Of a DNA stretch of 64,000 bases, positions 11,094 to 54,152 are shown piece after piece. Position 1 is the first letter of the stretch; every line of letters begins with the position of its first letter. Under the pieces are notes generated by a model. It did no database searches, was not told the DNA's origin, and saw nothing but the letters and a program-made list of their open reading frames with translations. The translations under genes were made by a program, and so were the position numbers. Source of the stretch: Torpedo marmorata (taxonomy: Eukaryota); the NCBI GenBank assembly GCA_977017645.1, contig OZ360230.1:38378001-38442000 (forward strand), written 5' to 3'.

Positions 11094-12001
11094 ATCAGAA
11101 TCAGAATTTATTGTCATGAACAAGTCATGAAATTCGGTGTTTTGTGGCAGCATCATAGTGCAAACATTCATATTATAACATTACTATAAAAAATAAAAAT
11201 AATAGTGCACGAAAAGTAAGGCAGTGTCTTTGGTTCATTGATTATTCATGAATCTGATGGCAGCGGGGAAGAAGCTGTCCTTGTGCCATTGAGTGCTCGT
11301 CTTTAGGCTCCTGTACCTTTTTCACGATGGTAGCAGAGTGAAGGGGGCATGGCCTGGGTGGTGACGGTCTTTGAGGATAGAGGCTACTTTCTTAAGACAC
11401 CGCCTCGTGTAGATGTCCTCGATGGAGTGAAGGCTGGTGCCTGTGATGTCACAGGCCGAATTAACAACCCTCTGCAGTTTATTCTTGTCCTAAGAGTTGG
11501 CGCCTCCATACCAGTCAGTAATGCAACCAGCCAGAATGCTCTCCACGCTATACCTGTAGAAGTTTACGAGAGTCTTCGGTGACATACCAAATTTCCTCAA
11601 GCACCTCACAAAGTATAGCCGCTGGCGAACCTTCTTTGTGATTGCATCAAAGTGGAGACTCCAGGACAGATCCTCGGAGATGTTGACAGCCAGGAATTTG
11701 AAGTTCTTGACCCTCTCCACTACTGAGCCCTCGATGAGGACTGGGTCGTGTTCCCCTGACTTCCTCCTGAAGTCCACAATCGTCTCCTTGGTTTTGCTGA
11801 TGTTGAGCGCAAGGTTGTTGTCTTTACACCATTCAACGAGCTGATTTATCTCCCTCCTGTACGCTTCCTCATTGCCGTTTGTGATTCTGCCGACAACTGG
11901 GGTGTCACCGGCAAACTTGTAGATGGCATTGGAATTGTGCCTGGGCACACAGTCATGGGTGTATAAAGAGTAGAGCAGTGGACTAAGCACACATCCTTGC
12001 G
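11094..12001 (-). mobile_element. 5'-truncated Rex1/Babar LINE, same subfamily as 6763-8491 and 18188-19085
   Basis: ORF 11490-11990 is near-identical to ORFs 7581-8177 and 18183-18926. The (TCAGAA)n tail lies at 11094. Confidence 0.92.
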
Positions 12002-12581: not shown

Positions 12582-15119
12582 TTATTTTTTTAAAAATATT
12601 TTATTTAAATTTTTAAATCACAGAATACACAAAATAATTTTGCATATATTTCAAAAATACATGTGATATACATTTTCTCCCCCCCTTCCCACCCTCCCCT
12701 CCCTAACCCCTATATCCCCACTACTCTAAAAATAAAATATAGTAAAAGAGAAAAAGAAAAAGGAAAGATAGAAAAATAGAATGAGGAGACAACAAACTTA
12801 AAACTAATTTACCTTAGAGGTTATTTTCGCCAGTGGATCCGATATCTAGAGAATTTAAATTGTTAAACCCATAATCCTCATATATGGGCCCCAAATTTTC
12901 AAGAAAGAATGGTATTTATTTCGCAAATTATAAGTAATTTTTTCTAATGGTATACATGAGCGTAACTCTGCATGCCATCGTTCTAAACTTAAATCCACAT
13001 CTGACTTCCAAGTAATAGCTATACACTTTTTCGAAACTGCTAATACTATACGTAAAAATTCTACTTGGTACATATTTAATCTATTTCTAATACTAAATTT
13101 TTTAATATCTCCAAATAAAAATAACATAGGATCCATTGTAAATCCAACATTAAAAATTCTCTCTAAAAAATTCTTAACTTTCAACCAAAAATCTTGAATT
13201 TTTGAACATAACCATGTACAATGTACAAAAGAACCTATTTCACTTTTACATCTAAAACACATATCTGATAACGCTGGATTAAATTTCTTCAATTTTTTAG
13301 GTGTTAAATATAGTTGATGAAAAAAGTTATATTGTACTAATCTATATCTAACATTAATAACTTTAGTCATACTTAATTTACATAAATCTTTCCAATGATT
13401 TTCATCTATATTAACATTTAAGTCTAATTCCCATTTTAATCTAGATTTATGTAACCCTACTTTAGACATCTTTCTCTGAAACAATTTATACATTTGTGAT
13501 ATAAACTTATTAATATTAGCTTTAGTAATTAACAATTCCAATTCATTTTGTCTTGGTGCTATTAATTCATTCCCTAATCTCTCAATCAAAAAGGCTTTAA
13601 CTTGAAAATAAACTAACATTATATTATCTAATATATTAAATTTTTCTTTTAACCTTTGAAAAGTAATAAATCTACCAGCTTCAAAACAATCTTTTAAGGT
13701 CTTAATTCCCTTTTGAAACCATATTTTAAGTAATTGATTGTCAATAGAAAATGGTATAAGCGGATTCTGATATATTGGTGTATTTAAAGAAATTGATCCT
13801 TTCGACCTATCTCTTTATCTACCTGTGACCAAATTTCCAACAAATGTTTAATAATTGGTGAATTTTTCTTTTTAACTGTTAAAAACTGTTCCACTTATAA
13901 ATAATCTCTTCTTTATGTATTTCTCCTATATTATTCAATTCTATATTAATCCAAGCAGAAGATTTAGTTGAATCAAAAAATTCATTGATAAACTTTAATT
14001 GAGCTACTTTATAATAATACTGAAAATTGGGAAGTTGTAATCCTCCCATCTCATAATTCCATGTTAATTTATCTATACTTACTCTTGCCAACTTTCCTTT
14101 CCATAAAAATTTCCTAATAACAAATTTTAAATCTTAAAAAAATTTATTTGGAATACCATAAGGAATCGATTGAAAAAGATATTGAATTCTTGGAAAAACA
14201 TTCATTTTAATACAATTTACTCTTCCCATCAAAGTTATAGGTAGGTCTTTCCAAAGTTCTAAATCTTTTTTTATTTTCATAAATAAAGGTATATAGTTTA
14301 ATTTATACAAATTTTCCGACTTTATATCCACTTTAACTCCCAAATATTTAATACTTTCTTTAGCCCATTTAAAGTCCGTAACTTCTCTACATCTAGTATA
14401 ATCCCCTTGAGATAAAGCCAAAATTTCACTTTTATCTGAATTAATTTTATATCCAGATATCTCACCATATTCTATCAATATAGTAGCCAATTGCTGAAGT
14501 GATGTAACAGATTTTGTCATATATATTAATACATCATCTGCAAACAAGCTAATCTTATGTTCTTCCCTACCAACTTTTATTCCCATTATGTTTATATCTT
14601 CTCTAATCATTTCAGCTAAAGGTTCTATTACCAAAACAAACAAAGCAGGTGACAGAGGGCATCCCTGTCTTGTTGATCTTGATAACAAAAATTTTTGCGA
14701 TATTTGTCCATTTGTAACTACTTTAGCCGTAGGTTCTTTGTATATAGTTTTAATCCAATTTATAAAATTATTTCCAAAACCAAATTTTTCCAAAACCTTA
14801 AATAAAAAATTCCACTCTACCCTATCAAAAGCCTTCTCTGCATCCAATGTTACCACCAATGGTAAATCTTGTTTCTTCTTATATATATTAATCAAACTTA
14901 TCAATCTAGCTATATTATCTTTCGAGTATCTATTCTTAATAAATCCAGCTTGATCTGAATATATTAGGTTTGGTAAATATTTAGCTAATCTATTTGCTAA
15001 AATTTTTCCCATTATTTTATAATCTACATTTAACAATGAAATAGGTCTATAAGACTCAGTTTTCAACACATCTCTATCTTTCTTTGGTATAACCGTAATA
15101 ATAGCGTTTAAAAATGTCT
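12582..15119 (-). mobile_element. 5'-truncated L1-clade LINE (ORF2 RT plus Cys-rich C-terminus) nested in the pogo 5' region
   Basis: YRPISLLNVDYKI, LDAEKAFDRV, TRQGCPLSP, LFADD and a C-terminal CFRC..GSFVHCTWLC. G-rich 3'UTR, AATAAA and A-rich tail. TSD TCGC(G/A)ATGATT at 12571-12581 and 15120-15130. Confidence 0.93.
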
Positions 15120-15219
15120 TCGCAATGATTGAGCTGCTGGGCGTTGACCGACGTATAGGTCGACCCACAACGATCACGCTGATTGAGCTGCTGGGCGTTG
15201 GCTGGAGGTGATTGTTATC

Positions 15220-16555
15220 ATGGAGGCTCAATTGAAACGACGAAAGTATGAGGCGAGTTTTAAATGAAAAGTTATAGAAATGGCCAAGAAAACCAACAAC
15301 TGTGCTGCTGCAAGAAAATTTGATATATACAAGAAGTTGGTAAGAGATTGGAGGAAGAAAGAAGATACTTTAAGAAAAATACCAAAAAGGCAATGTTCGA
15401 TGAGAAGAGGAATCACTCGTTGGCCAGAGTTGGAAAATCATGTCGCAGCATGGGTACGTGAACAGAGGCAAGATTGTTACATCGTCACCCGAAATAAAAT
15501 AAGAACATTTGCACTGAAGTGGGCAAAGTCGCACCCAGAACTCAGTAATGATTTTGAAGCTACAGTAGGCTGGTGCAACCGTTTCATGAACAGGAAAAAT
15601 CTGGTTTTACGACAAAAAACTAAAATTGCTCAGAAACTACCAAAAGATCTTGATCATAAAGTTGTAAGTTTTCACCAGTTTATTATACGTAACCGGCAGA
15701 AACACAAGTTTGCATTGGCAAATATTGGAAACATGGACGAAACACCCATGAATTTGACATGATAGGCAATAGAGCAGTGGAATGGAAAGGTGTGAAAACT
15801 CTGCAAACGAGGAGTACAGGACATGAAAGGACCAGGTTTACCGTGGTGTTATCGTGCATGGCCAACGGGACAAAGTTAAGACCCATGGTAATCTTCAAAC
15901 GCAAACTTAAACCTAAAATAAATTTCCCAGCAGGTATTTTTGTACATTTTCATGAAAAAGGATGGATGGATGAAAATGGTGTAAAACTATGGATAGACAA
16001 TGTGTAGACAATGTGTGGAACAGGCGGCCAGGCGGTTTATGCAAGGAACGGAGTTTGCTGGTCTGGGATATGTTTCGTAGCCACGTAACTGAGAAGACTA
16101 AAAGTAGATTAGCACAACATAATACTTACATGGCGGTTATCCCGGGTGGTTTGACGTCTATATTGCAACCTCTCGATGTCTGCTTGAACAAGCCATTCAA
16201 AGACCATGTGCGTGAAGAGTGGAATACATGGATGACGAGTTCAGAAAAATCATTTACAAAAGGCGGGGTAATGCGTGCTGCATCGCTTGATGTGCTGTGT
16301 GGCTTCGTGCTCAAGGCATGGGACAAAGTGAAAGTAGAGACTATAATAAAATCATTTAAAAAGTGCTGTATCTCTTGTGCAATTGATAGTACGGAAGATG
16401 ATTTATTGTGGGACACTGACGACGAAGCTGAAGACGCCTCATCAGATACAGACTGGGACCCGTACGATGACTGTTTAAACAGTGAGACCCCGGATGTGCT
16501 TGCCGAGATCTTTGCCTCAGACGATGATAGCGAAAGTGATTTTGAAGGGTTCTAA
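15220..16555 (+). pseudogene. Disrupted pogo transposase (Brinker-like DBD, CENP-B-type HTH, DDE_1 catalytic domain)
   Basis: ATG at 15220 (MEAQLKRRKYEASFK*KVIEM). In-frame TGA at 15265-15267, frameshift near 15755 (NMDETP) and an 11-bp duplication near 15995-16016. Catalytic residues D(ETP), WD and QPLD, with 35 aa between the last two. Confidence 0.92.
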
Positions 16556-18187
16556 ATGTCTTGTTGTTTTCAATAAAAATGTCAATGAAAATTTGTTGCA
16601 GTCGGGTTTTTTTTTGGTTTTTCAAGGGTCAACTTATACGCCGAATCGTGTTTTCAAGGGTCGACTTATACGCCGAATCGTGTTTTCAAGGGTCGACTTA
16701 TACGCCGAATCAGCGTGGACTGGATTTTGAGCTGATTTTAAGGTCTCAAAAGTATATCCGGCGTAAAAGTCGACCCCCGTTTTTTGAGACATTTTTGAGG
16801 GTTTCAAGGGTCGACTTATACGCCGAAATATACGGTATGCACTATATCTGGTCATTGTCATTTCTGATCTGGCACTCGTCCATAGCTTTACAATGTGTCT
16901 AGCTTAAAAATCTTCAATTCCTTGCAATGGTTCACCTTAATAGGCACACGGAGTACACAAAAAAAAACTAATTAATCATTTATATTGGCTGGTTTTAGAT
17001 AACAATAAGTATGAGTGCTATAAAAAAAAAAGCCAGATTTCATCTTGGTACTCAATCCCATTACTCACCTCACAGCTCTCTCATCTTAGGTGGGACTCTG
17101 GACAGGGTGGTGTGATGGTGCTTTTTTTCTTAACTGAACAACCACACAGTAAATGGGAAGGAGCCTTAGTCCAGAAAGCACGTGGTTCATCAGATTGTAG
17201 ACATTAAATAACCTCAACTACATAAGGAACAGGTGGTCACCAAAACAGATCTGGCCCAATAAAACTCACACTCAAACTGAATTGTATCATGATTGACTAA
17301 CAGGTTCTTGGAATAATTTCAAGATTGTGCTTGCAGTGGATATTTAGGCAATGTTTCCAAACCACCACTGCATCTACACTGATATTGATGATGTCACCTG
17401 CTCTTCAACCAGTTTACAAACATGCAGTGAGCGTATTTGGCATTCTATACATAAACCACCAGAACCTCCGCTTTTTACATTTCAGCCTGGGCTCACTCGG
17501 AGACATAGGTTATGTTGTGTTAGGACATGAAGCAGCAGGAAGAGTGGGCCACTTTACTTCTCAACATTTTAAAATATTGTAGCTGTCCTGATTGTAACCT
17601 CAGCTCCACATTTCGTCTGCCCACAGATGCCTTTCACCCCTTTTCTTATCAAGTATCTATTTGCCTCTGGGTTAAACATATTCAGAGCTCTGTTTCCACT
17701 ACCCTTTGAGAAAAAAGTTTCAAGGGCTCATGGTTCTCTGAGAGAAAACATTTTGTCACATCTCTGTCTTACACAAGTGAACCCTTATTTTTAAAACAAT
17801 GGCCCTTAGTTCTAGATTTCCTCACAAGAGGAAACATTTACTATATATCTACCTTGCCAAAAAATCCCACAGGTTCTTGTTTCAATCAAGTCTCCCCCAC
17901 TCTTCTAAACTGCAACCAATATGAATGACCTTTCCTCCTATGATAATCAGCCCATTCCAATGAAATCTCTGAACTAATTCCAATGCATTTGCATTCTTCC
18001 AATACTGTATATAGTCCTCCAGATATGGTTTCACCATGCCTTGTTTAACTGAAGTATAACCTTTATACTTTTGCGTTCAATTCCACTGGCAATAAACAAT
18101 CATGATCCGTTAGCTATCCTAATCACTTGCTATACCTGCATGCTGAACTCAGAGCTCTGCAATTTCTCACCATTTAAATAAGATGCT

Positions 18188-19085
18188 CTACTCGTTATAC
18201 ACTCATGACTGTGTGGCCAGGCACAATTCCAATGCCATATACAAGTTTGCCGATGACACCACAGTTGTCGGCAGAATCACAAACGGCAATGAGGAAGCGT
18301 ACAGGAGGGAGATAGATCAGCTCGTTGAATGGTGTAATGGCAACAACCTTGAGCTCAACGTCAGCAAAACCAAGGAGATGATTGTGGACTTCCGGAGGAA
18401 GTCAGGGGAACACGACCCAGTCCTCATCGAGGGCTCAGTCGTGGAGAGGGTCAAGAACTTCAAATTCCTGGGTGTCAACATCTCCGAGGATCTGTCCTGG
18501 AGCATCCACGTGGATGCAATCACAAAGAAGGCTCGTCAGCGGCTATACTTTGTGAGGTGTTTGCGGAGATTCGGTATGTCACCAAAGACTCTCGTAAACT
18601 TCTACAGGTGTACCGTGGAGAGCATTCTGGCTGGTTGCATCACTGCCTGGTATGGTGGTGCCAACTCCCAGGACAAGAGTAAACTCCAGAAGGTTGTTAA
18701 CTCGGCCTGTGACATCACAGGCACCAAACTTCACTCCATCGAGGACATCTACATGAGGCGGAGTCTTAAAAAAGCAGCCTCTATCCTCAAGGACCCCCAC
18801 CACCCAGGCCATGCCCTCTTCACTCTGCTACCATCGGGAAAAAGGTACAGGAGCCTAAAGACAAGCACTCAATGGCACAAGGACAGCTTCTTCCCCGCTG
18901 CCATCAGATTCCTGAATAATCAATGAACCAAAGACACTACCTTACTTTTCGTGCACTATTGTTTATAATTTTTTATAGTAATGTCGTTAGAATGGTTAAT
19001 ATGAATGTTAATTGCTCTATGATGCTGCCGCAAAACACCGAATTTCATGACTTGTTCATGACAATAAATTCTGATTCTGATTCTG
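18188..19085 (+). mobile_element. Young 5'-truncated Rex1/Babar LINE
   Basis: Open 247-aa RT C-terminal ORF 18183-18926 and a (TTCTGA)3 tail. TSD AAGATGCT at 18180-18187 and 19086-19093. Confidence 0.93.
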
Positions 19086-19172
19086 AAGATGCTATTATTT
19101 TTCCAATCTTACTGCCAAAATGGACCATTTCACATTTTCCCACATGATTCTCTATTTGCCATATCTTTGTCT

Positions 19173-19572
19173 CTTCTCTGTGGATTGTCACCTTGTCGTG
19201 GTGGAGAAGCTTGTGTGGTCCTGAGATCCCGAGAGTGATGCCGTCTGGAGCTATGCTCCTGGTAGGGCCACCCATGGCGGTAAGGTCAAGGGTGAGGTCC
19301 CTGACAAAGAACAATCCAACCAAGTCCTCAACGGTGGAACAGGCAGATGAAGTTACTTCAAACTCATCGGCTGTGAAGGCAGACAAAGGCTGCAACAAAT
19401 CCATCAGCTCCATGCCATTGGAATTAGTTGGTTGATTTGTGAAGTATCGTGTGCTTCTTGGAGTGCAACATTAAGTACATGTTAAACAAATGCACGCACA
19501 GGCGTCTTTGCTCTGTGATCAACGGAATGAAGACCATCATCCTCGACCTCAAAGGATAGCCACGACGACGAC
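19173..19572 (+). mobile_element. Non-autonomous RTE-derived element (RTE/Expander-type 5'UTR plus 3' tail)
   Basis: 5' end GTCACCTTGTCGTGGTGGAG...GGTAGGGCCACCCATGGC...AGGTC...GACAAAG resembles Expander/BovB 5' ends as recalled. (ACG)n tail. TSD CTTTGTCT at 19165-19172 and 19573-19580. Confidence 0.8.
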
Positions 19573-21101
19573 CTTTGTCTACTCATTTAACCTATCCTAC
19601 CTATATTCCTTTGTTACAAACTCAATTACCTTTCATGGCTTGCTTTCCTACCTATCATTGTGTCTTCAGCTGCTTTACTAACCATGCCTTTGCTGCCTAT
19701 AACCAAGCCTTTTCATAAATTGTAAAAAGATGAGGCTCTAGCACAAATCCCCGGGGCACATCTCTCATTACATCTTGCCAACGAGAAACATATTTATTTA
19801 TGTCTACTCTTGTATTTCTGGAAGGCTGTCAATGTTTTACCTACACCAGCAGGTTACTTCCCAAATCATGGGCTTTATTATCAGCAACAAAGTTTGATGA
19901 GGGACCTTATCAAATGCCCTCTGGAAATTTAAATTCATACATCAATCAGTTCCCACTTATCCACAGCACATGTAAGTAACTTCCACAAAGAACTCCAATA
20001 AATTTGTCAGCATGGTTTGCATTTCACAAGACCATGCTGCCTTCACTTGACTACCCTGAATTTTCTTAATTTTCCTGTGCAACTGTCTTTCATGATAGCT
20101 TCTCACATTTTTCCAATTACAAACGTTGAGCCATCAGACCTACATTCTCCCACCTTCTGTCTCCTTTTATGAATAAAGGAGTTACATTTGCTATTTTCTT
20201 GTCGAAAGGAACCTCCCAAATCAAGAGGATTTTGGAAAATTAAAACCAATGCTTCAACTATCTCACTAAACACTTCCTTTAAGACCTGAGGATGAAATCC
20301 ATCGAGACTTGTTAGCCTGCTTGATCCAACAATTACATAGGCCCAGTGATTGGATTTTTCCTGAGTTCCTTCCTTTATGTAAGATATCTGCTGGAATATG
20401 TCAAATGGCCCCAATTGCCAGCAGACTTCCCTCTGATTCATTCCCAACACAAAATGCCAAGAACAATCTCTACTTCACCATACCAGTGTACTGATGAAAG
20501 ACATCTGCAGTAGACAATGGAAGAAAGAGACCTGCCTAATCCTTTTACACGGGCTGGGTGTTCTAGCATTGAACTCACCAGCATTCTTCCCCATAGCAGC
20601 AACTCACCACTTTGCTATTGCACGGTTTGTTCTGTGAAAATCAACTGCTTACCTGTAAAATGTTGACAGCACTTCAAAGTTAGTAGGTGTATATGAAGTG
20701 AATGTAACAGATTAACAAATCAACGGAAGCAACCCCTTGATTGTAGACGGCAACTTACACACATAGAATTTACTGAGAAGAGCCAATTGATCTATCTGGT
20801 CTATGCTTCTCATGAGCCTTCTCCCACTCAACTCCAGCTCAAAATATCAACCTACAACTAGACACAATCAAATTAGTTGACAACTCACTGATATACAATA
20901 TTCTCTATTTTATCAGAATAGGATTAGATGGAGTGTGTTCTCAGTCCTGCTTCTGTAGAAATCAACTATTTTTTCATCACCTTACTAAGCAGCTGAAAAA
21001 AGATGTTAACTTATGTTTAAATATTTCACCAAGGTTACCTAATGAATTGCAGTCTACTCATTTTGCAATAGGGCACTGAAATGTGCATAGAGTACTAAGT
21101 A

Positions 21102-21818
21102 CAGTAAAACCCCTTCTATCCAGAATTCGAGCAACTGGCAAAACAAAATTGAGGAAAATAAATAAATAAAACTTAAAATAAATAAGAATAAATAAAAATT
21201 TAAATAAAAGTTTTAAATTGTAAAAGTAAATGTTCTCTGAAGTAACACATAAACCTTTGGTGAAGATGGGAGCAAATATTCAGCCAGCGGAGTGCTTTGG
21301 TCGTGCTTTGCTCGTAGCAGCTGTTTAAATAAAGTTGTATTTGAATAAAATGGCGTCGCCCAGGATGAAGAGCTGGTTGATGCCACTCGCCATTGGCTGT
21401 CTGCTTAGTAAGAGTTTTAGTAAGAAGCTCACTCCCTGCTTAGTAAGAGTCTTTATCTTTATTAGTATATTATTAAGTATATCAGTAAGTCTTCATCTGT
21501 AAACTTGGGGGAGGGGGGGGTTAATTATCTGTAATGTTATTGTTTGTCTTTCGGGCGGCTCCGTGGAGGTGTAGCGACGGTTAAATGTTTTCAAAGAATG
21601 TGACTGAAAATGAAGTAAAATTCTTTAAGGTTTATATATTCATGCAAGTGAAGTTTGTTCAGTGTAAGTACAGTATAGTATTATTGTCTTTTAAACTGTT
21701 TATTCTTAATGCAGTTGTATAAGTTAGGCATTGTAAGAGTGAGTCTCAAGCAACTGGAAAATACACTTATCCGGCATCTACCAATCCCCATAGGTGCCGG
21801 ATAGCAGGGATTTTACTG
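21102..21818. mobile_element. Tigger/pogo-type MITE
   Basis: TIRs CAGTAAAACCCC.../...GGGATTTTACTG with TA TSD at 21100-21101 and 21819-21820. A related fragment lies at ~38120-38190. Confidence 0.85.
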
Positions 21819-24800
21819 TAATTACAATTCTTCTGCCTTCATGTTCTTGGCTATAGAGAGTTTTGTCTTCTCATTGTCCCTGGTGAAGATCCACTGTCCA
21901 TACCATAGGATGCGCTGATCACTTCTCAAAGCTTCTCACCAGTTACCCAAGAGTTCTAGGTGCAAATAATGTCAGCCATTTCTGAATCAGCTAGCATGGT
22001 TTTGAGGCATATTACAGCTTAAGAACCAAAAGCTGTTTGGAATTAGCACTAAAAAGGGTAAAGCAACGCTTCCCTCCTGTGCCTATATCTGATTTTTTTT
22101 TATTGCAACCAATGAATCACTGGTTTCTGTGTAACAAGATGCCATTTGTCTCAAATCAGTCTGGACTACTGTTACTTGTTAACTTTGTTGCCTCTGTGAG
22201 GCTGCAGGAGTGATTTAACTCTTTCACTTCCACCACAACCTTGACAATGAACTGAAGGGCACCACGGCCGATGGGTTCAGGCAGAGATAAAACAATAGAA
22301 CTAATCATTTTGAAAGGCAGGGTGCACTTATTGGGTCAAATCAAGGTAAGTGATAGCAAGCAGGTCGGCAGAGGAATGAATGCTGGTCTTTGGCCATTTG
22401 CAGCACAGCTCGCTTCTGACATCTGTGCCTGCTCACCTCCAAGATGAGCTAAAGATCAGATGCCAACACATCTAATCTTCACCATCAGCTCCCAATGATT
22501 CCAGCAATGGGGCATGGAGAGAGGTGGAGAGAGGATCCCTTGGTGTCTTGGATTTATTTGAATGAAGTTGCCAACTTCATGCAAAATATACATGCAAGCA
22601 AATGTTGAAATAATTCAATGTTTTGAAATAAATTGTTCACATTATATGGTGCCTTCAATTAAATATACTTTAATGAAGACATCAAGTCCTATTGCACAGG
22701 AACAAGCCCTCTGGCCATGCTGACCATTGTACTTATCTGTACTCATCCCATTTACCTGGATTTGGTCCATAACCTTCTGTTCAAAGTTGTTGATAGCATT
22801 CAGGATGGGCCCTTATTGGTATACTACCTGAAGCCTAATCACTGCTTTGAGCCTATTAAGCCTCACAATATGCTCCTGGGTTTGGGGTTAGGATCATCTT
22901 GTTTGGACTTCCACATCTGGAAAGAGTGAGTGTGGACAGTCAAGCAACAAAGGCCCTGAAACTGGGCATCAAGCTGAGTCCAGTACAATCTTGCCCATAT
23001 GTACACTTATCTTATCAGGAGTACTGCCTCCTCATCTTCAAGTGAGACTTATCCTGTTGGCGGGGACTCAGTGACAGAACATCGAGAAAGAGTTCCAGTT
23101 CCAGTGTTATTCCACTTGCAATCTGCATTTTATTTCTTTTTGCTATGCCCTGTTTTATAAAATGTAAGGGCTCTCACCAGATATTGTTTAGGTAAAGATG
23201 GAAACATTCTTTAAATTTCACAACACATTTTTCCACAGAATTCCAAAACTAATAGTCCTGCAACAGCCCCTTTCATTTAATGAAAGCAACAACATCTGGT
23301 TGCAAACCAAACAAACTGATAATATTTCGACTGAATGGGGAAAGCTATAATTTGATGCTCAATATATATTTTGAATTTGTTCCATTCAGAGGATGCATTG
23401 GGCCCCTGAGTCTTGCTACATACTGTATGCAGTTACTATATTGACTCACCAAACAATTGTAAGATTAGGATTTAGCCTTCAGAGGATATGCTGTTTCACG
23501 TAACCGTGTTGAAGAGTCAGGATTTAAAGTGGAGGTGTGAGTGAATGGAAAAGAAAGGGAGGATGCACATGGGTGAGGATAATCATCTGAAAACAATTAA
23601 ACACTCGTCCGAGTGGGGTTTATTACAGAAGTCCATTTATGAGATGATGTAAGATGAAGAGACGGCATTGGGAGGGTGAAGTGAGGCTGACATGGTCAAG
23701 TTGGCTTTTGGGGTGGATATTGAGAGGAAAGAGGTTAGAATACAAAAGGGAACTCACATATACAACAGCCAGACTTTAGGACTGAACTGCTAGCACTAGA
23801 AAAATATACATAAAATAGTGGTTAATTGAACTGAACTTTGGTAAGGGATTAAATTGTTTCTTTAAAAGCCCCTTTGGTGAAGTGACCAAGGTTGTCTTTC
23901 AGCCTCCAAAAACTGGATTTGAACTGGCAGATTCTGGCCCCAAAAGATGATGATTCCAGATATTCATCTTGTTCTTTTTCTTCCTTACATTCCCTGTTAT
24001 CTTTAAAAGAAAAGTAAAATGATGACCACTTGCCATTTTTGTTGGTGTTATGTGGTGCCCTCAGTTTTTTTTTCTCCAATTTCCAAGCCCCAGCTACACT
24101 CCAAAGTTTTGCAGGTGCGTGTTTCTTTAATGAGAGCCTTTAAAAGTGTTGGAATAGTAACAGTGGAACTGCTGTTTCTAGCTGCCAGTCTGGTTTTCAT
24201 TAACAACTCAACAAATCAAATTCCTCTCTACCAGCACCCAAGGCTGGATCTCAACTATCATGCAGCAATAATTATGTGCTGGGCGGGAATCCATTCAAAA
24301 AATTATAAGACACACTGTGTGACAAGCATGTAACTGAATAAGCTTTCAATCTTTTTTTCTTGCAGGAGGGAGTCACTTGGTTTCTATTTAGGACAAAAGG
24401 GAAACTATGGGTTATTAAAGTTGTAAGGGCGAGTAGCTGTGCGAAATGGAGAACCCCCTAGGTAGAACACAGGGCACGATAACTAGAAACAGATCAGAGA
24501 GGAGGCCTTGGAGCTGATTGGGATGGATTTTAAGATGTACTACTGTATGGTAAAACTCCACTGTATTTCAGCCACTTGGACTCAGTAACACATTGACTTT
24601 TATTTCCCCCCAACTGTTGCAACAAAATATTAAAAATGCGACTGCCATATTTAGAATTAAATGGTTCTGAAGTGAACTTTCTTTCGGCTGTACTTGAATT
24701 TCTAACGGCGTACGAGTGTAAATCTCGTGTGGTATCAGGTGTTGTTTCGAGGGAATTGAGGAGGCTTGTGGGAGCTACCACTAGATGTACATATGAGGAA

Positions 24801-25599
24801 CATTCTGAAGGAATGCAAAGGCTCTCAGTGAGCGATCCCAGATAGTTATGGGTGCATGTTCAGAGACACATTTTATTCTCAGAAGATGGTTGGTGTACTT
24901 TAAAAGAATTTACTGCATTTTGACAATTTAAGGCTTGTGTGAGAATTGATAACAACTCACATCCTTGAAACTAAAACCTTTATTTGTTTAGCTTTTAGAA
25001 AAAAAATCTTTCCAGCAGTAAAGTGAAACAGGATAATGCATCTAGCGAGGAAGTAACTTGCTGACAAGTAGCAAGATTAGGGATCCCTCATTATTTTGAG
25101 GAACTTTGCGCCTGTCCTGGGATAGGAACATGGATTATGAGCAGTGGTGATTAGTGGATGCTGTTCAGGAAATTCCAGCAGTCCGATGGGCTGTTAGCAC
25201 ACAGCCTACTGATTCATATGTCATCTGCTAGCTATAAACTCCAAATTTGCTGTAAACCCATTATTTAAACACACTTGAAATAAGACATTGAACAAGTTAA
25301 TTAGCTGGGTAATTAGAAACCAACCACACGGTTAGGAACAGATTCCATTTGTGATACTGGTGCATGCACATCGGAAAAACAAAAAAATGCATTTAAGCAT
25401 TTAAGAAAGGGTTAGAAATGTTGGCGAACCACAACTCTGCAAAACCACTTTCTGCTTCAATTTGTGAATAGGTTACCTTTCAACACGCTTAAAACAAGGA
25501 TGATTTAATAGATTGCTTTGTCCTTGATGAAAAATGCCCCCAGCCTCAATCCAAACAAAGCATCTAATGTGCGGTTGGCTTTTTTTTTCCTTTGGCAAG

Positions 25600-25812
25600 G
25601 CAGCTCTGTACTGATAAGACCGTTGCCTGCTATTCTCCAAGGACTGGAGCTGCTGGAAGACTGCAACGGAACTCATCCCCTGTTACTTCTGATGCGGGTG
25701 ATCTTCCGACTCCATGGCGCCAACCACAACATGTTACCCACCGTGAGAGAGCAGGACGCAGGCACTGGTAGTCAGGAGTTATCGTCTATCATACTGATTG
25801 ACGAAACCAAGA
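25600..25812 (+). other. Putative internal exon (213 nt, phase 1-1), gene unidentified
   Basis: CTAAT branch-like site, T-rich tract, AG acceptor and GTGAGT donor. Open frame SSVLIRPLPAILQG...IILIDETK. CpGs retained relative to the flanks. Confidence 0.35.
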
Positions 25813-26457
25813 GTGAGTAGAAAAAATAAACATGAACAGAGACTGCAGTGTTTAGGGCAGTCAGCTGGGAGTTTCAGTATTTGGCCTCCGTGATCCCAGT
25901 CTCATGGTGGGTTATCTTTCCCTTCTGCTATCATTTATCATAACTCTAAGGCCAGGGAGAAACAAAACTCAGAACATTCTATTAGTTGCATTCATTATGC
26001 TTTCTCCTTCCTCTAACCCTTCTTCCTTTTAACAACACCCCATCACTTTCCACCCCCACCCAACCCCTCACCTCACTAAAGTTCCATCCCTTCACATCCC
26101 AATCCCTGAAGCATTATGAAATCCAACACCAGAGCATAATCCTATTCAAGTAATTGGCCTGTTTTATTGATTCAGAAATTTACGCACATACATTTTAGCA
26201 CAGACAAACTGAGTTAAATATTTAACCAACACAAAGGCTGAACTATATTAAAATAAATTACTTTCTGGTAGCATGTTGCTTCTTTTCTTGTTCTTCTCAA
26301 ACTTAACCAGAAAAATTAACTACAGAATTTGTTTAAAATTTTCAAGATTCTAATTTATTTCTCTAGATGATCATGGTGTCTGTTAGTAAAACATGTTAAA
26401 TCGTATAGATATTAAACATCATTCAGACTTGAGCCACAGTGGCTCATTCTCTTTAGG

Positions 26458-27257
26458 TTGCTGACCGGCTGCATCACGGTCTGGTATGGGAACACCAATA
26501 CCCCTGAGCGTAAAGCCCTCCAAAAAGTAGTGGACACAGCCCAGGACATCACAGGCAAAACCCTCCCCAATATTGAGTACATCTACAGGGAACACTGCCG
26601 TCGGAGGGCAGCAGCAATCATCAAAGCACCAGCACTACAGCACCAATAGCCCGAATAGGACTGGGATTGTCTGATCTCGGAAGCTAAGCATGCACAGGAC
26701 TGATCAGTACTTGGAGGGGAGACTGCCAAGGAACACTAGGTGCTGTAGGTTTCTGTGAGGGGCGCTGGACAAAGTAGCGACTCTCTGTCTGCCTTATGGT
26801 AGACAAAAGTTAAAGAATTTCATGTATGTTACATTCTAAATGTAGTATTACGTGACAATAATGGAACCTTTACCTTTACAAAGACCCACACTACCCAGCA
26901 CACAATCTGTTCTCACTGCTGCCATCAGGAAAGAGCTATAGGTGCCACAAGATTCACACCACCAGGTTCAGGAACAGATGCTACCCCTCCACCATCAGAC
27001 TCCTCAATGTCAAACTCATTTAAGGACTCTTACTTGTGCACTTCATTGATTTTCTTTTGTTCTCTCTGTATTGCACAGTTTGTTTACATTTATTATCTGT
27101 TTACAGTTCTTTTATTTGTTTACATGTTTACACTGTGTACAGTTTATGTTTTGCACTACCAATTAGTGGTAATTCTGCCACGCCCCCAGGAAAAAGGAAT
27201 CTCAGGGTTGTATGTGATGTCATGTATGTTCTCTGACAATAAAATCTGAAATCTGAA
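26458..27257 (+). mobile_element. 3' fragment of a second Rex1/Babar subfamily, interrupted by SINE3
   Basis: LTGCITVWYGNTNTPERKALQKVVDTAQDI is near-identical to 51201-51569. Tail GACAATAAAATCTGAAATCTGA. Confidence 0.9.
26627..26878 (+). mobile_element. 5S rRNA-derived SINE (SINE3-type)
   Basis: Head contains CTGATCTCGGAAGCTAAGCA...AGTACTTGGAGGGGAGAC...GGTGCTGTAGG (5S box A, box C and 3' end). (ACCTTT)n tail. TSD CAAAG at 26622-26626 and 26879-26883. Confidence 0.9.
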
Positions 27258-27357
27258 GGTTGTCTCTACCCAGAGGGTATTCAGATGCTCCCAATTGCTT
27301 CAGACACTTATACACACAGGGCCTAGGTTACAGATTGATCACCTGTGTTGCCTGCAG

Positions 27358-27459
27358 CAAGAGGGTACTCAGAGGGGCTCATTCTCTCAGTCACATACCC
27401 GGAAGGTTCTTCGTCATGGCTGACCTCACTTCAATTATTTTTACCCAGACAGGTCTCAG
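27358..27459 (+). other. Putative internal exon (102 nt, phase 1-1)
   Basis: CCTGCAG acceptor and CAG|GTAAGG donor. Stays in frame with 25600-25812 (T-RGYSEGLILSVTYPEGSSSWLTSLQLFLPRQVS). Confidence 0.3.
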
Positions 27460-29244
27460 GTAAGGCTGACTCACTTCAACCTCCAAGCAGCAAGCAGGAA
27501 CGTAAACCCAACTCACTGACAACACTGGAATTTCGAGGGGAGCCAGGCATGGTTTCTCTGCTGCAAGCAGCATGTGTGCAGGGAGATTTTAATGCCATCT
27601 GCAGCTTCAGTCACTCATTGTCAAGACCATGTACCGAATAAACCCACGTTAGTTGTCTATTTAATGATATGCTGATGTGAGTCCACTCCTCCAGACAGGT
27701 TGCAAAGGAATGGTCTGAGATACAGCTTGTTAATTACTAAAGGACGCAGGGAAGCAATGTAGTCACTTGTAAATGAAAGTAAAGACTCTGTTCAGTCATG
27801 ATTTTATAGTCCAATGGACCTATATCTAAAGGATATTTAGATGTATGGTTTTTATACAAGAGAGCTTTTACATAGATCAAAGCTTGCTGAATTCTGTATT
27901 TTTGCATATTTTGTTTGCTCAGAATTCAGTGTGGAGACATTTGCACCACTTAAATAAAGTGGCAAACAGGTTTGGCACCGGCTCAATCTCCATTCCCAAG
28001 ATAGTAAAAAGTGGTCTGATACTGCACTTCCAACATGAGGCAAAATGAACACCGACTTTAAAACCAAGTAAAACTTGCTGCCTTAAAGACAATATTTTTA
28101 TATCAGTACAGACATATAATTTTCTTACGAGTACAGTTGTTTCTCAAACATTGTAATGGCCACCTTCTTAGCAGTATGTTCATTTTCAGCTCTTGGTCTT
28201 ATCATCAAGAAAAAAATCTTAAGGTGCTTCACAGGAGTGTTAATAAACAAAATACAATACCAATCCACATAAGGTGATAGCGAGGGAGATAACCAAAGGT
28301 TTAATACAAGAGAAATATTTTGAGAAGGGAATATGAGAGAGGTGGAGGGTTTAGAAAGCATGTTTCAGAGCTTGGCAAATGAAGAAGAATGCCATATTAA
28401 TGCACAGATAAGCATACAGAATTGGAGAAGTGCAGGTGGGAAGTAATTGTGGAAATATCGAGAGCTGAAGCCAAGGTGGAATTGGAAAACTTGGATGAAA
28501 ATGCCAGCTATCAAAGACAAACAGTGTGCAGCATCTCATGCAAAATATGGCATCTCAGAGACAAATATGTTACTTTGTCGAGACTAAATATGTACATTAA
28601 AAATCCAATAAACAGCATTTGTAAAGAAAAAATTAATAATGACTGTTATTGTGTCTATAGGGAGCCTTTCTCTTCCATTATATTCCACCATTGACTCATA
28701 ACTGGAGTATAGAAAGATAAACCAGGCACTCAGCCCTGTGGGAAAAAGTCTTGCACCTGTGTTTGCATGTGTAGTCAGTATTCTATTCTCCTGGCAGCCA
28801 TTTATCAACAATGGAAGTACATGAACAGAACTGCCATGTTCTCGTGCCATTCAAAAGACTGTTGCAACTTTATAGAGCAAACTGGAGGTCTATCATTGGT
28901 TGCACATTTTCTCTTTAAAGCACAACCTCATACCACAGGAAAATCCATGCCAAACAAATTGGTTTCCTTGAGGGGATCTCAAACTGCTTGTTTTCAAATG
29001 AATGAATACCAAAGAAAATCTTTCAAGAGGCATTGACAAATATAAAGTAATTCTGTGGTGCAGGGAAAGGGAATGTAATTCTGCTTTAAAGAGATACTAC
29101 TGCAGAATAAAAATAAAACTATACAAAATGGAAAAGGCTTACCCAACATAAAAGGACCTGATCAGTGACCAGCTAGAAAGGAGCCTTCGTTTATAGCTGA
29201 GGTCCATTGGATTGCTGATACCAAATGCAAATGTCAGTGTATGT

Positions 29245-29487
29245 GGTAAAGGTAAAGGTTCCATTATTGTCACGTAATACTACATTTAGAATGTAACATA
29301 CATGAAATTCCTTAATGTTTGTCTACCATAAGGCAGACAGAGAGTCACTACTTTGTCCAGCGCCCCTCACAGAAACCTACAGTACCTGGTGTTCCTTGGC
29401 GGTCTCCCCTCCAAGTACTGACCAGTCCTGTGCCTGCTTAGCTTCCGAGATCAGACAATCCCAGTCGTATTCAGACTATTGGTGCTG
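29245..29487 (-). mobile_element. Second copy of the 5S-derived SINE3
   Basis: Reverse complement closely matches 26638-26878, including the 5S internal promoter boxes and the (GGTAAA)n tail on the + strand. Confidence 0.9.
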
Positions 29488-30072
29488 GCAACTGAGAAAT
29501 TCTTGCTTCAATGTATCTAAACTGCAGCAATAAATTTGTGGAACCTTAACCCAAGCAAATAAAATATCACTGCAAAGAAACTTAGATGGCATCTACAGTA
29601 TTCTGCTGGCATTTTTGATGGTGAAAAGTGATTCATATAATTTTGGAATTAAATTACATACTAAGTGGAATTATATCCTTAAGTGCAACAAAAACCCCAT
29701 TTGATTCAGAAAGCTTCTCTCAATGAATATGTTTGTAGCTGACAAACATTACAGGCAAGTTCTTCTGTCAAGAATGTGGATTTCACGCAAGTGCTTCAGT
29801 CAAGCGTGTGGATTTCACACAAGTGGACGAACTTTAGTAATACATCATCCCGAACACGGTTCTCTATCTGCTCTAACAATCTGGTTGAGGCACATGTTGT
29901 ATTACAGACAGTGATATTGAATAACAAAAGCTCATGGCTCATTTCAATAAAGACAATCACCTTGATTAAGGATGGAATCTCAGCCACATTCTCAAAGTTT
30001 GGAACAATACTGTCAACTGATTTTACTTTGTGTAACGGGTTTGCATAGGGCTTAGAAAAAGAGACGACTCAC

Positions 30073-30791
30073 GGAATTGTTTTCCAGCATTTATTTGCTC
30101 CCTTTAGAAGACAAAAATAATACAACCATTGTCTTCTGGGTTTTCTTCCTTTTCTGCCCCTTTGCTCCCTAAGCAAGGTAGCAAGTAGTATCTATCATTC
30201 ATTCTTTTCCTCAACTACACACAGAAACTGTATTTTAACATTTCAATATGTACTCAACTCAGGGTACACGGTATTAGCTGAGAGCTTTTAAGATTTGCCC
30301 AGGAAAACATTTTGCATTTTAAAATCTTTTCAACTATATAAAAAAACTATATATACAAAGTGAAAACAGTGGCACCCAGTGGGCGAGTTAAAAACTGCAT
30401 AGAAAAACGAACTAGCCAAAATCATACAATTAACAAGGAAATTCTGTACCTTTAGAAGACAAAATAATACAACCATTGTCTTCTGGGTTTTCTTCCTTTT
30501 CTGCCCCTTTGCTCCTAAGCATGCAAAATAACAGAATTTATACTATGAAATCTCGGGTCACATGATCAACACATGGTAATGGCGCCTCAACACAAGTTAG
30601 ATAAAACATTCATAAAACTCACATTAATGATTAAAACAATACAAAACCAACTGTAAAACATAATAATATTAGCAATGAACAATATATATTGAGATTGATA
30701 AAATAACCAATTCATTTTCCAAAGAAAATATTAAAGTAACCCAGCAGCAAGGTTCCCCTGCACTTACCCTAAGTAAGGTAGCAAGCAGTAT
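30073..30791 (-). other. Cluster of small exon-like segments with a tandem spliced copy
   Basis: Segment A ends at 30768 followed by GTAAGT. Exon B spans 30514-30450 (TTAG|...|GTACAG). 30191-30102 equals A joined exactly to B, followed by segment C (30101-30073) and GTGAGT. Confidence 0.7.
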
Positions 30792-33700
30792 GAGGAACAG
30801 GAAGGGAGGGGCTTAGGAAGTGCACAAGGTGTGCACCGCCAAACTCATTCCCACCGGAAACATTATTAAATTGGCAATAATTACAAGTGACTCATTGAGA
30901 TAAAATTCACAATTACAGAATTGAGAATAAAAATTATTAAAACACATTTTTAACTCTGTTACATTTGAAAAGGAATTAATACATAAATATTCCAAATGAT
31001 ATCAAAAACCTAATATGTTACATTCCTTATGCGTCCTTGCGCTCAAAATGCAATCTCTGATGGCTCATTGGGTCTAGTGGCACCAACCATTAGGGTAAAG
31101 TTCTTTGAGCGGTTGCATGTGATTTGCTCAGGTCCAAGATGAGAGAGGCAAGTTTTTGCTGACCTCCATTTTGCAACGTTCACTTCAAAAAATTTTCATC
31201 CATGATTTCAACTAACCATCGGAATAAACTCTTCCAGCACATCAATGCTCCAATATAATAGGAATCGAAAACTGTTAGGGCAGAGAAGGAGGCCATTTGG
31301 CCTCTTGATTTATTCTGATTTCTAGAAAAAGAATCCAGTTAGTCAAATTCTCAACTTTTTCCCCATAGCCCTGCAAACTATTTTCACTCAGCAGCCTACC
31401 TAACAAGCTCTTGAAAGCCCTGACTGATTCTCTTTTCGGCATCATTACAGGCAGTGAGTTCCGGGCCAAATTTGCTCTTCATGTAAAAATAGCTTTTCTT
31501 AAATTCTTTTCTTCAAATATTAAATCTGCCTGCCCCATCCGGATCCTTGTGCCATTCACTAACAGGAACAGCTCCCCTCTATTTACCCGATCTAAACTAA
31601 TCATGGATGTACACTTTTATCAAATTTCCTCTCAACCATTTTGGCTCAAAGGAGAAAAAAAACCCATTTTATTGCTTGAATTGAAATTCTCCAACTGCTG
31701 TGGTGGGATTAGATTTAAAGATTCTTATTCTATGTTCCAGGCCTCTTGATGCTAAGCCAGTAATTTAACCACTATGCTACCAAACCACAGGAATCTATTC
31801 TCTGATTCTGACCTCTTGTACTTTCCTGATTTGTATCGGTCCACCATTGGCACTCATGCCATTCACTGCCCGAGTCTTTAAATTTGGAAATTCCCTTTCC
31901 GAAGCTCTCAACTCCATGGGTCTCTCCTCCTTCGGATGCTCTTTGAAACCAACCTCATCGATCAAGCTTTTTAGTTAACTCTTCCAATTACCTCTTTTTG
32001 TGGATCAGTTTCAACTGATTCAATATTTTACTGCATTAAAAGCACAATGTAAACGTGGATTGTTGTTGCTGTTGACATTGATTAAATTGTATAAAGTTAT
32101 ATTTAAGACTGCCAATCCTCCATGAAAATGCGGTAAATCTAGCACATCATAAAAATATTTTCATGAGATTATCTGTAACCCTAATAGATTTATTATTTCA
32201 TATTTATTGCCCTCCATCTTGCCAACCCCATTTCTTTAATTTTAAGGTGTAAGGGGCTTCCTTAATTTATGGCCAGGTTGTAAATCCCAGCCAATCAGAA
32301 GTCAAGAAAGTTACTTCAATATAATCATGCCATAATTCACGCCCACTGCCTACAGCAGAATATTGATACATTACCCTCTCAAATAACAATACTGTCTCCC
32401 ACAGCAGAGCTGCATGCAGAGACAGACAGGAGAGAAAGAAGGTGATTGACTTTTTCAGACAGAAAACGTGTTATATATTAGCCTTGTCAGCCATCATAAA
32501 GTATTCCCCTAAGTATCGGTAAATGTGCAATCTGTCCACTTCCTTGCACAGTCCCCCATCCGCCCAGCAGCACTGCCATTCTAACTCAACGGCATCCAGC
32601 TCTTAACAGCTGCTTAAAGCTGATACAAGCACTTCTATCTCTCAGCAGGCAATTCTTACATAAGCATTTATTTTTCCAGATTTTTTTAAAGAGCCTGCAG
32701 GATTTAATTATGTATACAGACACTCCTATAAACTATTCTGAGAGCTTTATTGACTTTTCACTGTGCCTGCATATTCCTACAATTAAACCAAATGAAACTT
32801 TCCATTTCTGCCAAGCCTTGCCCAGGTTTCTGTTTGCTATAATAACACAATCCAGCTCAAATAGATAATAGTTATCAGGAACAGCTGGCTTTTTACTGCA
32901 TTTTAATATTATAGGCAATCAATTGGACCCCTTCATCTCAGAATCGAGTACAAATCCCACCTAGTTACTTGGGCCGTTAAAGTGACAAGGGCAGTGACAA
33001 GGGTAAGGGGAAATGACCTGCCTGCTTCAAGTTTGAATATTGCTGGAGTGAAAGGCTGTGTGAGGTATGATTGGTCTGAATTTTCAGGAGACCTGCTGTC
33101 CAACCTAGACCTGGTCAGTGTCGTGTTTGCACTTTCCCGTTCAACATCAGCCACTGAGGCTGTCGGGCCGACTGATGACCTGTTATGCCGGGTATCATGA
33201 GAAGGGGAGCTGGAGACAGTGAGGGGGAAGGAGAGATAGCTGTTGCCTTTGTCCACTTTCTCCAGTGCGGTTCTGTGGTATTTACTAGACTCCTGCTACA
33301 CTCCATTCAATACGGCGCGCGGCAGTTCATACACAGCGGGCAGCCACAGGCACACCAGGCCCGTCTGTGGAAACCTACCTCTTTTTCATACATCTCCAGT
33401 AGAATTATGCACCTCAACTGCTCTCTTAAGCTGTTCTAATTTCCCTTTCCCTCTTTAAGCTGCCCTGTGAGCCATGAGCATGCATTAAAATCTCCCTAAA
33501 ACAGTTACCCAGAGGCAATGTAATTCCAAAACAAGCACCTAACACTTCACAGCTAAGAAATAATGGATTAATTTGAACCTAATGTCGCCCCAGTTTACTG
33601 CTCCAAATGTTCTGCTGCAGACATAGCCCCAAGGCATAGTGCTGTGGCATGAACACAACTCCTGGAACCGCAGCTACAGTTGGCTTAACATCTGTGCTTC

Positions 33701-37018: not shown

Positions 37019-37317
37019 GACTTTTACACAGCCGCTGCATAATGGGAACATCTCGGAAATTTCCCGTTATACTGGCTGTTCAAAAATGTCGTGACGGAAA
37101 TTAGTTACTAATTTCCGTCCCGACATTTTTCCTGCAGCAGCCCTAGACATTTTTGCGGATTGCCTGCAGTCTAAATTGAACTGCAGGCGGTCCGCAAAAA
37201 TGGGTTAAAGAATACGACGTACCTGTGTACGTCCGAATCGACGTCGACCCACGTCCACCCTCCGGAATCACCGCAATGCAGGAAGTTAGTGTCAACGTCC
37301 ATCCTGTGTGAACGGCC
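37019..37317. mobile_element. Probable PIF/Harbinger-type MITE with internal palindromes
   Basis: Imperfect termini GACTTTTACACAG / CTGTGTGAACGGCC. CpG-rich interior with hairpins at 37082-37130 and 37148-37202. Confidence 0.6.
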
Positions 37318-38012: not shown

Positions 38013-38908
38013 CTATATCACCCTTGTTAACAAATTTCTCCAAGATATCACCCCTCAAACTTTCCCTAATCCAACAACCCCCTGAGATGTCTGCATTCAC
38101 CAATCATGCAACACGCAATCTCAAGCAACCGTAAAATTCATTTATCCGGCATCTACCAATCCCCATAGGTGCCAGATACCAGGGATTTTATCTCTTTAAA
38201 TATTTCTGCCATTCTATCTCTCTTTCCTTCTTTAAGAAATTCCTTGTAATATACCACTCAGATCAACAATTTGATTATCTGCTCTAATATTTCCTTCACA
38301 ACTTCAGATATTGGAAAATTCTCAAAATTTTCAGTTGGTCAGCCAGCATCTGTGAAGCGAGAAAAAAGAGTTAACATTTCAGGTCAATGAACTTTCTTTA
38401 TTGTCCCAAGATGTTAAGTTTTATTTCTCTTCATAAATGCTGGCTGGCTTGCTGAATACCTCCACCATTTCCTGCCTTTATTTTGACTATTTCCTTATAC
38501 ATTTGGTGTTATATTGGATTACACTTATGTAAAGTAACACAGAACATTCTGCTATATTGGATAACGTACAAAAATGTTTTATTATTGCTGGAGTGTTAAT
38601 TCACCTTTAATACATTGTACTACAAGGCCATATACTACAGGAATATATTTAGAAAATAAAAGATTGTCTAGTGGATAATCTCAGTCTTCTGCTTTAATTT
38701 ATTTATGTTGGATTGGACAGTGGAATCCTGAATTATCCTGTCATTTGGAATCAAAATGCTTGTTCTGCCATTTTTCAGAACTAAACATCATTATCGTAAT
38801 AGAAGCACTGTGTAGAACCTTCTCAAAATAGCAACGACGGCACCACAGGGGTATATGAAAACATTTGGTAAGAATGCTCACCATCTATTCAAGCAAACAT
38901 CAACAATT

Positions 38909-45493: not shown

Positions 45494-45700
45494 ATGCCAT
45501 GATTGTATGTATCTTTTATCATTAACAAGTACAAAATACTTTAGCATGTTCATTGGTGCAAATGTTACAGTTCACCCACTCTCAGACTGGTTTAAACAGA
45601 AAGAGTTGAGGTCTGCTTTATCAATATATCACCACCTTCCACCTAATCAGGAGCCTGAACCCCTTGATCCCTAGTGTCTCCTTCCACCAATGGCCTAAAC

Positions 45701-45836
45701 CAGTGGTTCTCAACCTTTTTTTCCCCCACTCACTTACCTTACTAACCACAGGATAGGATGCCATAGGTGTTCTGTGGTTAGTAAGGGATTACTTAAGGTG
45801 ATATGTGAGTGGAAAAATAAAGGTTGAGAAGCACTG
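45701..45836. mobile_element. hAT (Charlie-like) MITE
   Basis: TIRs CAGTGGTTCTCAACCTTT / AAAGGTTGAGAAGCACTG with 8-bp TSD GCCTAAAC / GCTTAAAC. Confidence 0.88.
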
Positions 45837-51817: not shown

Positions 51818-52299
51818 ATGGTGAATATTTATCAATTTACAACTATTTTCTTTTCCTCACACATAAAAATCACTATTTTTTATTTTCCTCAGATGCTGCA
51901 GCCACCACAACAAACAAATCACCCTTTGATCCTTGGTTACAAGTTTGACACTCTTGACTTAATCTCTTCAATGATATCCACAGTCCCAGTTACCTACGAA
52001 AGCGCCTGCTACATGACATCAGCTTGGCTCAGTTAACTGCTACTGACTCCTAAACTGAGCCCTGAGAACTCTGTGTTCAAAGCCCAATCCAACAACCAAG
52101 TCCATAATGTGTGCTGGTCCTTAGGTGAAGTGGTGGAGGAATACTACAATGCCAGACCTGCCTTCTTTCGATGTGATAACCTGATAGGAGCCATTACATC
52201 AAAATTCACAGGACCAAAGCAGTTGAAAGCTGTGGATCACCACCACCTCCTCTGGAGTAATTGGAGATGAGCAATAAATGCTAGCCTTGGCAAGGACAT

Positions 52300-54137: not shown

Positions 54138-54152
54138 CGGTACCAGGAGTGG
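54138..54152 (+). promoter_or_regulatory. Primer-binding site complementary to tRNA-Leu(UAA) 3' end
   Basis: CGGTACCAGGAGTGG immediately after the LTR's CA, versus the expected TGGTACCAGGAGTGG (vertebrate tRNA-Leu-TAA, from memory). Confidence 0.7.

Follow-up and report, generated by a model that had tools for sequence, protein, structure and literature searches.

An apparent 90-base copy of spliced exons within the second intron of a small unannotated fish-type gene

The routes by which introns are lost in evolution are disputed, an RNA-templated route standing against one that depends on microhomology. The contribution of RNA-templated repair to evolutionary intron loss has been described as yet to be determined (PMC12065846), and a prominent role of reverse transcriptase in intron loss has been argued against (PMC3698931). 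A clean intron loss cannot discriminate between the routes; a half-finished event, in which the original is kept together with a spliced copy, can, because it is hard to make without RNA. Here we analyse a locus that may preserve such an event, within a stretch of 64 kb (the window). Judged from its sequence, a small unannotated fish-type gene appears to carry a 90-base copy of its own spliced RNA inside its own second intron, and the question that it raises is whether the copy was templated by RNA and, if so, by which route. Along the minus strand one reads A, a GT-AG interval of 253 nt, B, a 258-nt spacer, the copy A'B', C and GTGAGT:

30792..30860, minus strand: region 5' of A, with ETS-type cores at 30859 and 30821, a hairpin (fold z -2.3) and a pyrimidine tract; not copied.
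30768..30791, minus strand: segment A, the 3' 24 nt of an upstream exon-like unit and the part of it that is copied; GTAAGT comes next.
30515..30767, minus strand: interval 1, which looks like an intron of 253 nt (GTAAGT...TTAG); both its ends carry a 6-nt repeat, CTTAGG, offset by one base from the splice register.
30450..30514, minus strand: exon-like B, 65 nt, ending at an AAG/GTACAG donor, with a 9-bp hairpin inside.
30192..30449, minus strand: spacer, a candidate 5' remnant of intron 2, 258 nt, beginning with GT and with a purine-rich end that lacks a polypyrimidine tract.
30168..30191, minus strand: copy A', 22/24 identical to A; its end is a possible acceptor.
30102..30167, minus strand: copy B' (B plus one T), joined to A' in exact splice register and ending, at its 3' side, in a possible AAG acceptor for C.
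30073..30101, minus strand: segment C, 29 nt, a candidate resident exon (internal or terminal), single-copy in the window, with AATAAA at 30095-30090.
30056..30072, minus strand: GTGAGT and a U-rich stretch, either a weak donor or a downstream polyadenylation element.

Firstly, we re-measured this arrangement on the window sequence. The coordinates that a sequence-only reading had given for A, the interval, B, the copy and C all hold, and its claim that a copy of A and B is joined at the GT/AG boundaries is borne out, with two mismatches and one extra base. The copy (30191-30102, minus strand, 90 nt) is composed of A (24 nt) and B (65 nt), the 253-nt GT-AG interval is missing exactly, and the whole sits 258 nt from B on the same strand. 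The duplication has a BLAST E value of 2.5e-27 within the 64-kb window. Similarity between A and A' begins abruptly 24 nt inside A, and that between B and B' stops at the GT donor of B, plus one shared G. The copy differs from A and B by two transitions, at copy positions 6 and 18 within the A part, and by a T added to a T-run of B; the earlier statement that splicing gives the copy exactly holds for the register of the junction and not beyond it. Within the 64 kb we detected no further copy of A, B or C, the best other ungapped matches being 17/24, 24/40 and 18/29, respectively, and the only exact repeats of at least 11 nt between 29400 and 31300 are A/A', B/B' and one 32-nt tandem unit. The latter lies at 29748-29825 in 2.4 copies and overlaps a box C/D-like motif at 29848 that is at chance level. 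The two substitutions in 89 nt amount to 0.022 per site, with a 95% interval of 0.003-0.081 that is 30-fold wide. By arithmetic, the chance that both would fall within the 24-nt A' part is about 0.07, and their position there may mean that they arose during the copying event itself.

An assembly artefact, in which transcript sequence was pasted in by RNA-assisted scaffolding, gap filling or polishing, would produce an insert with exactly the content of an RNA read, as we see, and the extra T in a homopolymer is a typical read error. However, two substitutions in 89 nt are more than one expects of RNA from the same locus (for scale only, the epaulette shark has a pi of 0.002; PMC10587355), the window contains no N letters, and a splice join is presumably not one that a DNA-only assembler would normally make. 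The three differences in 89 nt also argue against a haplotype or polishing duplicate. We regard an artefact as highly improbable.

Secondly, we scored the splice sites at the junctions with an approximate matrix of splice-site frequencies and ranked each predicted site over 127,920 window positions. The donor of interval 1 (GTAAGT) scores 10.3, a value reached by 21 of the 127,920 positions; the acceptor of B scores 7.0 (0.22% of positions are as good) and its donor 5.1 (505/127,920). A chance model was then run with 3,000,000 simulated duplications carrying an internal deletion, every microhomology register and a 2-nt overrun being allowed. GT-AG was present at the ends of the deletion in 0.56% of them, and GT-AG plus an end GT in 0.09%. 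Three moderate splice sites were found in 7 of the 3,000,000, and the observed splice scores in none; since the thresholds for the observed scores came from the observation itself, the count for moderate sites is the fairer comparison. The two junctions of the copy thus follow splice signals. A spliced RNA template is the simplest cause of junctions that fall on splice signals, and we consider it likely that the copy had an RNA template; the spliced-RNA origin proposed earlier is thus supported, by two independent junctions on three splice signals. A transcript of the locus would then exist or have existed.

Thirdly, we compared the splice register with a DNA deletion at the A/B join. Among 728 single-deletion models, five tie at 3 edits: three correspond to the 253-nt splice register and two to a 254-nt deletion, with a crossover 7-8 nt ahead of the donor. 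The A-to-G difference of the copy, seven bases ahead of the join, matches the 3' end of the intron itself; the 254-nt deletion accounts for this difference and costs one G insertion instead, and a MAFFT alignment chooses the 254-nt register unprompted. The splice register is still favoured, since a base inserted into a GG run is a less likely change than a transition. The argument that removing the interval as an insertion would leave one G too few is weaker than claimed, as the 254-nt deletion also takes 3 edits. The extra G alone does not settle splicing versus deletion; the second junction and the strengths of the sites carry the case for RNA. A-to-I editing was considered as a source of the A-to-G difference and dropped: in the folded spliced original the A is unpaired in a loop, not opposite a C in a stem.

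The same join bears on origins that involve DNA only. In one of these, microhomology would have guided template switching among real or apparent splice junctions; in the other, A would be the intronic acceptor of B, the copy would simply duplicate that acceptor together with exon B, and interval 1 would have been inserted afterwards, with a target-site duplication (TSD) of 6 nt. Microhomology at the ends of interval 1 amounts to 2 nt in the 253-nt register and 6 nt in the 254-nt register, and in worms and flies intron loss is predicted by microhomology at the junctions (PMC3698931). The 6-nt repeat at the ends of the interval, the equal edit count of the 254-nt deletion, the good acceptor at the end of A (8.1) behind a long pyrimidine tract, and a 10-nt repeat that spans both joins of the copy all fit such origins. 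Interval 1 has the CTTAGG repeat on both sides, while the copy has one G more than an empty site would have. Against these origins, a G insertion in the GG run is needed in place of a transition. Moreover, the insertion must start with a near-perfect donor (21/127,920) and the duplication must end exactly at the donor of B, while interval 1 has no other copy, dispersed or not, within the 64-kb window and no terminal inverted repeat among the inverted repeats listed. Taken jointly, the two DNA-only origins seem to us very unlikely.

Whole-intron removal matching a spliced RNA is present at the A/B join; at the B/C join it hinges on segment C being an exon. From its sequence, C may or may not be an exon and, if it is one, may be internal or terminal. 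Its GTGAGT donor is weak (score 3.85; 869/127,920 positions are as good), and C also looks like a polyadenylation site, its AATAAA preceding CA and then a stretch rich in G and U; of the 165 AATAAA sites in the window, 20 have CA and a context that is as rich in T. GT[AG]AGT is present in 1.7% of 30-nt windows and AATAAA in 3.7%; the proposal that the copy is anchored in C is plausible, and weakened by the poor donor and by motifs that are only modestly rare. On both exon readings the sequence after C is non-mRNA, which suggests that C is resident rather than retro-copied. The end of the spacer ahead of the copy has an acceptor score of -13.4, that is, no acceptor; as no native acceptor is left in 30192..30449, intron 2 would have been truncated. 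In contrast to the spacer end, the 3' end of B' offers C an acceptor of fair quality (score 8.05, reached by 0.13% of positions), and A' also terminates in a possible acceptor (score 8.1). The acceptors in A' and B' predict specific RNA junctions, and possible use of the B' acceptor by C could explain why the change was tolerated. Folding of the copy together with C is stronger than that of shuffled sequences (z between -2.55 and -2.8, the latter reached by 1 of 80 background windows), an observation that we do not use as evidence.

We also searched the flanks of the copy for the hallmarks of retrocopies. No poly(A) was found at the copy, a single A-run of at least 5 occurring in the 600 nt downstream, at 29616, and no TSD abuts it, the best matches being of 5-6 nt and more than 200 nt away; both absences had been claimed before. 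Lacking TSD and poly(A), the copy falls outside the definition of an L1-type retrocopy or class 1 TSIP (PMC5110952). A retrocopy of partly spliced RNA with the native C further on was rejected, the window containing no second C. A local retro-fragment is another matter: a piece of spliced RNA (A+B or A+B+C) would have been reverse-transcribed by a LINE enzyme and captured at a nearby break with no homology anchor, C being either target-site DNA or carried in. The modest rarity of the C donor and of AATAAA is compatible with this, as is the presence of LINE reverse transcriptase (RT) remnants within the window; inserts devoid of TSD and poly(A) are known, as class 2 TSIPs and endonuclease-independent L1 insertions (PMC5110952), and among cartilaginous fishes retrocopies are no rarity (14,081; 5.4%; 10.64898/2026.06.26.734816). 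However, if C is not an exon, the fragment ends exactly at the donor of B without reason, and a C brought in with the fragment should have a native copy, which the 64 kb lack. A diffusible cDNA would, besides, be unlikely to integrate 258 nt from its source and in matching orientation. We consider a retro-fragment unlikely, whichever origin C has.

The window as a whole is repeat-rich DNA of vertebrate type, containing remnants of L1-type and other LINE RTs, a Tc5-type DDE element, and a retroelement protease and integrase. The named relatives of its L1-type RT are mostly from teleosts, plus rat and langur, with no cartilaginous fish among them. An L1-type RT remnant with long open frames (12855-15369, minus strand) abuts a Tc5/pogo-type DDE transposase element (15268-16555, plus strand), the region being CpG-rich relative to the window, and a 0.9-kb LINE RT fragment of a fairly recent family is present in three copies that are 91-93% identical (7572-8494, 11094-11999 and 18184-19084). 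An LTR-retroelement remnant (54099-57266, plus strand) has its aspartyl protease and integrase domains in separate frames; a 100-nt direct repeat lies at 53858-53960 and 57288-57388, and a GC-rich minisatellite with more than 10 copies of a 57-61-nt unit at 52432-53203. A 242-nt element, which we take to be SINE3-like, has two 95%-identical copies (29246-29489, minus strand, and 26638-26879, plus strand) whose heads resemble 5S rRNA (37.8 and 29.5 bits against a cut-off of 38); the second copy interrupts a LINE fragment that is contiguous at 51250-51818, and the element has therefore been mobile. Self-alignment revealed self-complementary stretches at 37082-37202, 38340-38446, 45696-45841 and 61609-61777, possibly MITE-like.

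We then looked for a host gene. The region 5' of A contains a tract, 30811-30792, with 19 pyrimidines in 20 nt (matched by 0.12% of 20-mers), and no CpG island. It could be a promoter with the start of a first exon, or a branch point with its polypyrimidine tract, in which case the template would be a partly spliced RNA. When 19001-33402 was translated in six frames, stops being written as X, Pfam returned 0 families for 6/6 frames; among 55 chosen stop-free frames none exceeded a curated cut-off, and four had weak matches (E 0.014-0.084). The two frames of the copy have no match at E 10 in a set of 5.8 billion proteins, limited to longer proteins, only matches with E above 0.4 in the PDB, and nothing named among their Atlas matches (score 0.84, low recognition). 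A search of representatives with the 36-aa copy frame returned one unnamed 999-aa protein, at E 1.6e-5 over four stretches with 52% identity, a score that summed short repeats could inflate. The locus is probably non-coding. Rfam gave 0 matches over the window at gathering score, leaving unsupported the idea of a snoRNA host gene, which the pyrimidine tract and the short exons had prompted. The best snoRNA match, SNORA21, reaches 20.9 bits against a cut-off of 80 (E 0.15-1.5), and the region folds no better than shuffles; this match (30159-30297, minus strand) runs into the copy and, if real, would be a snoRNA cut off by the insertion, at a score far below threshold. The box C/D motif with a terminal stem at 29848 is one of six such matches among 45 C-D pairs in the window, which is not beyond chance. 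On the same strand, 2 kb upstream of A, a 120-aa stop-free frame lies in a GC-richer patch (32933-33295, minus strand), with no Pfam match and no PDB match better than E 0.4; within it a candidate 249-nt exon, 33209-32961, has an acceptor of 11.6 and a donor of 7.1. This frame could, to judge by its position and strand, belong to an upstream exon of the same transcript as A.

What we observe is a contiguous A'B', flanked by an intron 2 that looks truncated and by C and oriented as the original is, with exact splice joins and neither poly(A) nor TSD. The explanation that we rank first, and to which we give about an even chance, is a one-ended RNA-templated repair in cis, that is, an aborted intron loss, for which we infer a transcript, a break, priming in C and an enzyme. 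A, B and C would be exons of a short spliced transcript from this locus. A break in intron 2 in the germline would have been followed by trimming of the downstream DNA end back to C, removing the acceptor that belonged to C. The template strand of the trimmed end would pair with exon C of the spliced RNA, and a reverse transcriptase would extend it toward the 5' end of the RNA, through B and 24 nt of A; candidate enzymes are a translesion polymerase, as in human cells, or a LINE RT of the kind whose remnants fill the window. The new end would then fail to anneal to genomic A, an annealing that would have deleted both introns, and would instead be end-joined to the upstream break end at 30192, yielding a duplication rather than a deletion. 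The product expected from these steps is A, intron, B, part of intron 2, A', B' and C, the order that we observe. Such a change was probably tolerated, either through the usable acceptor that B' offers to C or because the locus matters little, and its product is most likely a neutral scar rather than a functional element.

Several observations count for one-ended repair: the two junctions fall on three splice signals; no TSD abuts the copy and no poly(A) marks it; the sequence after C is non-mRNA on both exon readings, as expected if C is resident; there is no second C in the 64 kb; and the spacer contains no acceptor. Against it, the exon status of C is weak and the anchor would be a mere 29 nt of exon, the 254-nt DNA deletion ties on edit count, DNA template switching could have been guided by the 10-nt repeat that spans the two joins, and the locus has no Pfam or Rfam host gene and no CpG island. 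A further objection is that a two-step history yields an identical end state. In that history, a tandem duplication of DNA from part of A through intron 2 would be followed by cDNA-mediated loss of both introns from the downstream copy or, in a variant, an intron-less allele and an intact allele would undergo unequal exchange; precise loss of successive introns by way of spliced mRNA is on record (PMC12065846). The two-step history demands two rare events at one small locus, the second of them recombining through the 24 nt of A', and exact repeats of at least 11 nt reveal no remnant of a duplicated intron in 29400-31300. We judge the two versions together to be quite improbable, while noting that one genome cannot separate a one-step recombination in cis from a duplication with later intron loss. 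One-ended repair would make the locus a heritable fossil, left in a vertebrate germline by break repair on an RNA template: a twin of reverse-transcriptase intron loss in which capture failed, with spliced exons written into the gene's own intron and fused to the next resident exon. We advance this fuller reading tentatively, at somewhat less than an even chance.

A single case, at a locus that is probably non-coding, proves little and probably has no function; what it offers is a pattern with which whole genomes can be searched. If the fossil reading is true, it defines a searchable class of scars, in which upstream spliced exons abut a resident exon whose acceptor has been lost, with no TSD or poly(A), and counts of such scars across genomes would test whether RNA-templated repair in cis operates in germlines and contributes to intron loss and exon duplication. 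We found no published description of this geometry in the titles and opening lines of abstracts that were covered, most subscription journals lying outside their scope.

The closest known system is RNA-templated break repair (RT-DSBR) in human cells, where spliced mRNA anneals to the cut template strand at a break within an intron and is reverse-transcribed, giving whole-intron deletions upstream of the break (PMC12065846). On our reading the copy would resemble it in its spliced RNA template from the same locus, in exact joins across consecutive introns without poly(A) or TSD, and in copying toward the RNA 5' side of the break. In RT-DSBR, however, both ends resolve by homology and the introns vanish in place, in somatic human cells, in experiments that report deletions and whose main text does not use the word 'duplication' (PMC12065846). 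Here, in contrast, the upstream end is non-homologous, the intron-containing original is kept and exons are duplicated, in an assembled genome and hence presumably in the germline. Repair of the RT-DSBR class depends on Pol zeta, not on a LINE RT, and takes place at a transcribed and spliced locus (PMC12065846); the copy is not a member of its whole-intron-deletion products, as the A-intron-B original is retained and exons are duplicated. Like a processed pseudogene, L1 retrocopy or class 1 TSIP, the copy is an intron-less, 5'-incomplete version of a spliced transcript (PMC5110952; 10.64898/2026.06.26.734816). Unlike an L1-type retrocopy or class 1 TSIP, it has no poly(A) and no TSD, measures 90 nt, lies 258 nt from its source instead of at a distant locus, and is apparently continuous with a resident exon. 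With class 2 TSIPs, which patch DNA breaks, it shares short length (experimental insertions are of 73-414 bp) and the lack of L1 hallmarks; those TSIPs have distant templates and are polymorphic among individuals (PMC5110952), whereas the source of the copy is adjacent within the window and the copy spans a splice junction. Microhomology-mediated intron loss (PMC3698931) likewise has microhomology at the intron ends, here 2 nt in the exact register and 6 nt one base off, and RNA-bridged end joining, described as bridging DNA ends, favours intron deletion (PMC11390984). Both delete the intron in place, and such a deletion alone neither duplicates exons nor explains two precise joins in the copy. 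As its sequence reads, the copy would work like RNA-templated repair or reverse-transcriptase intron loss, but with the introns remaining and the exons duplicated.
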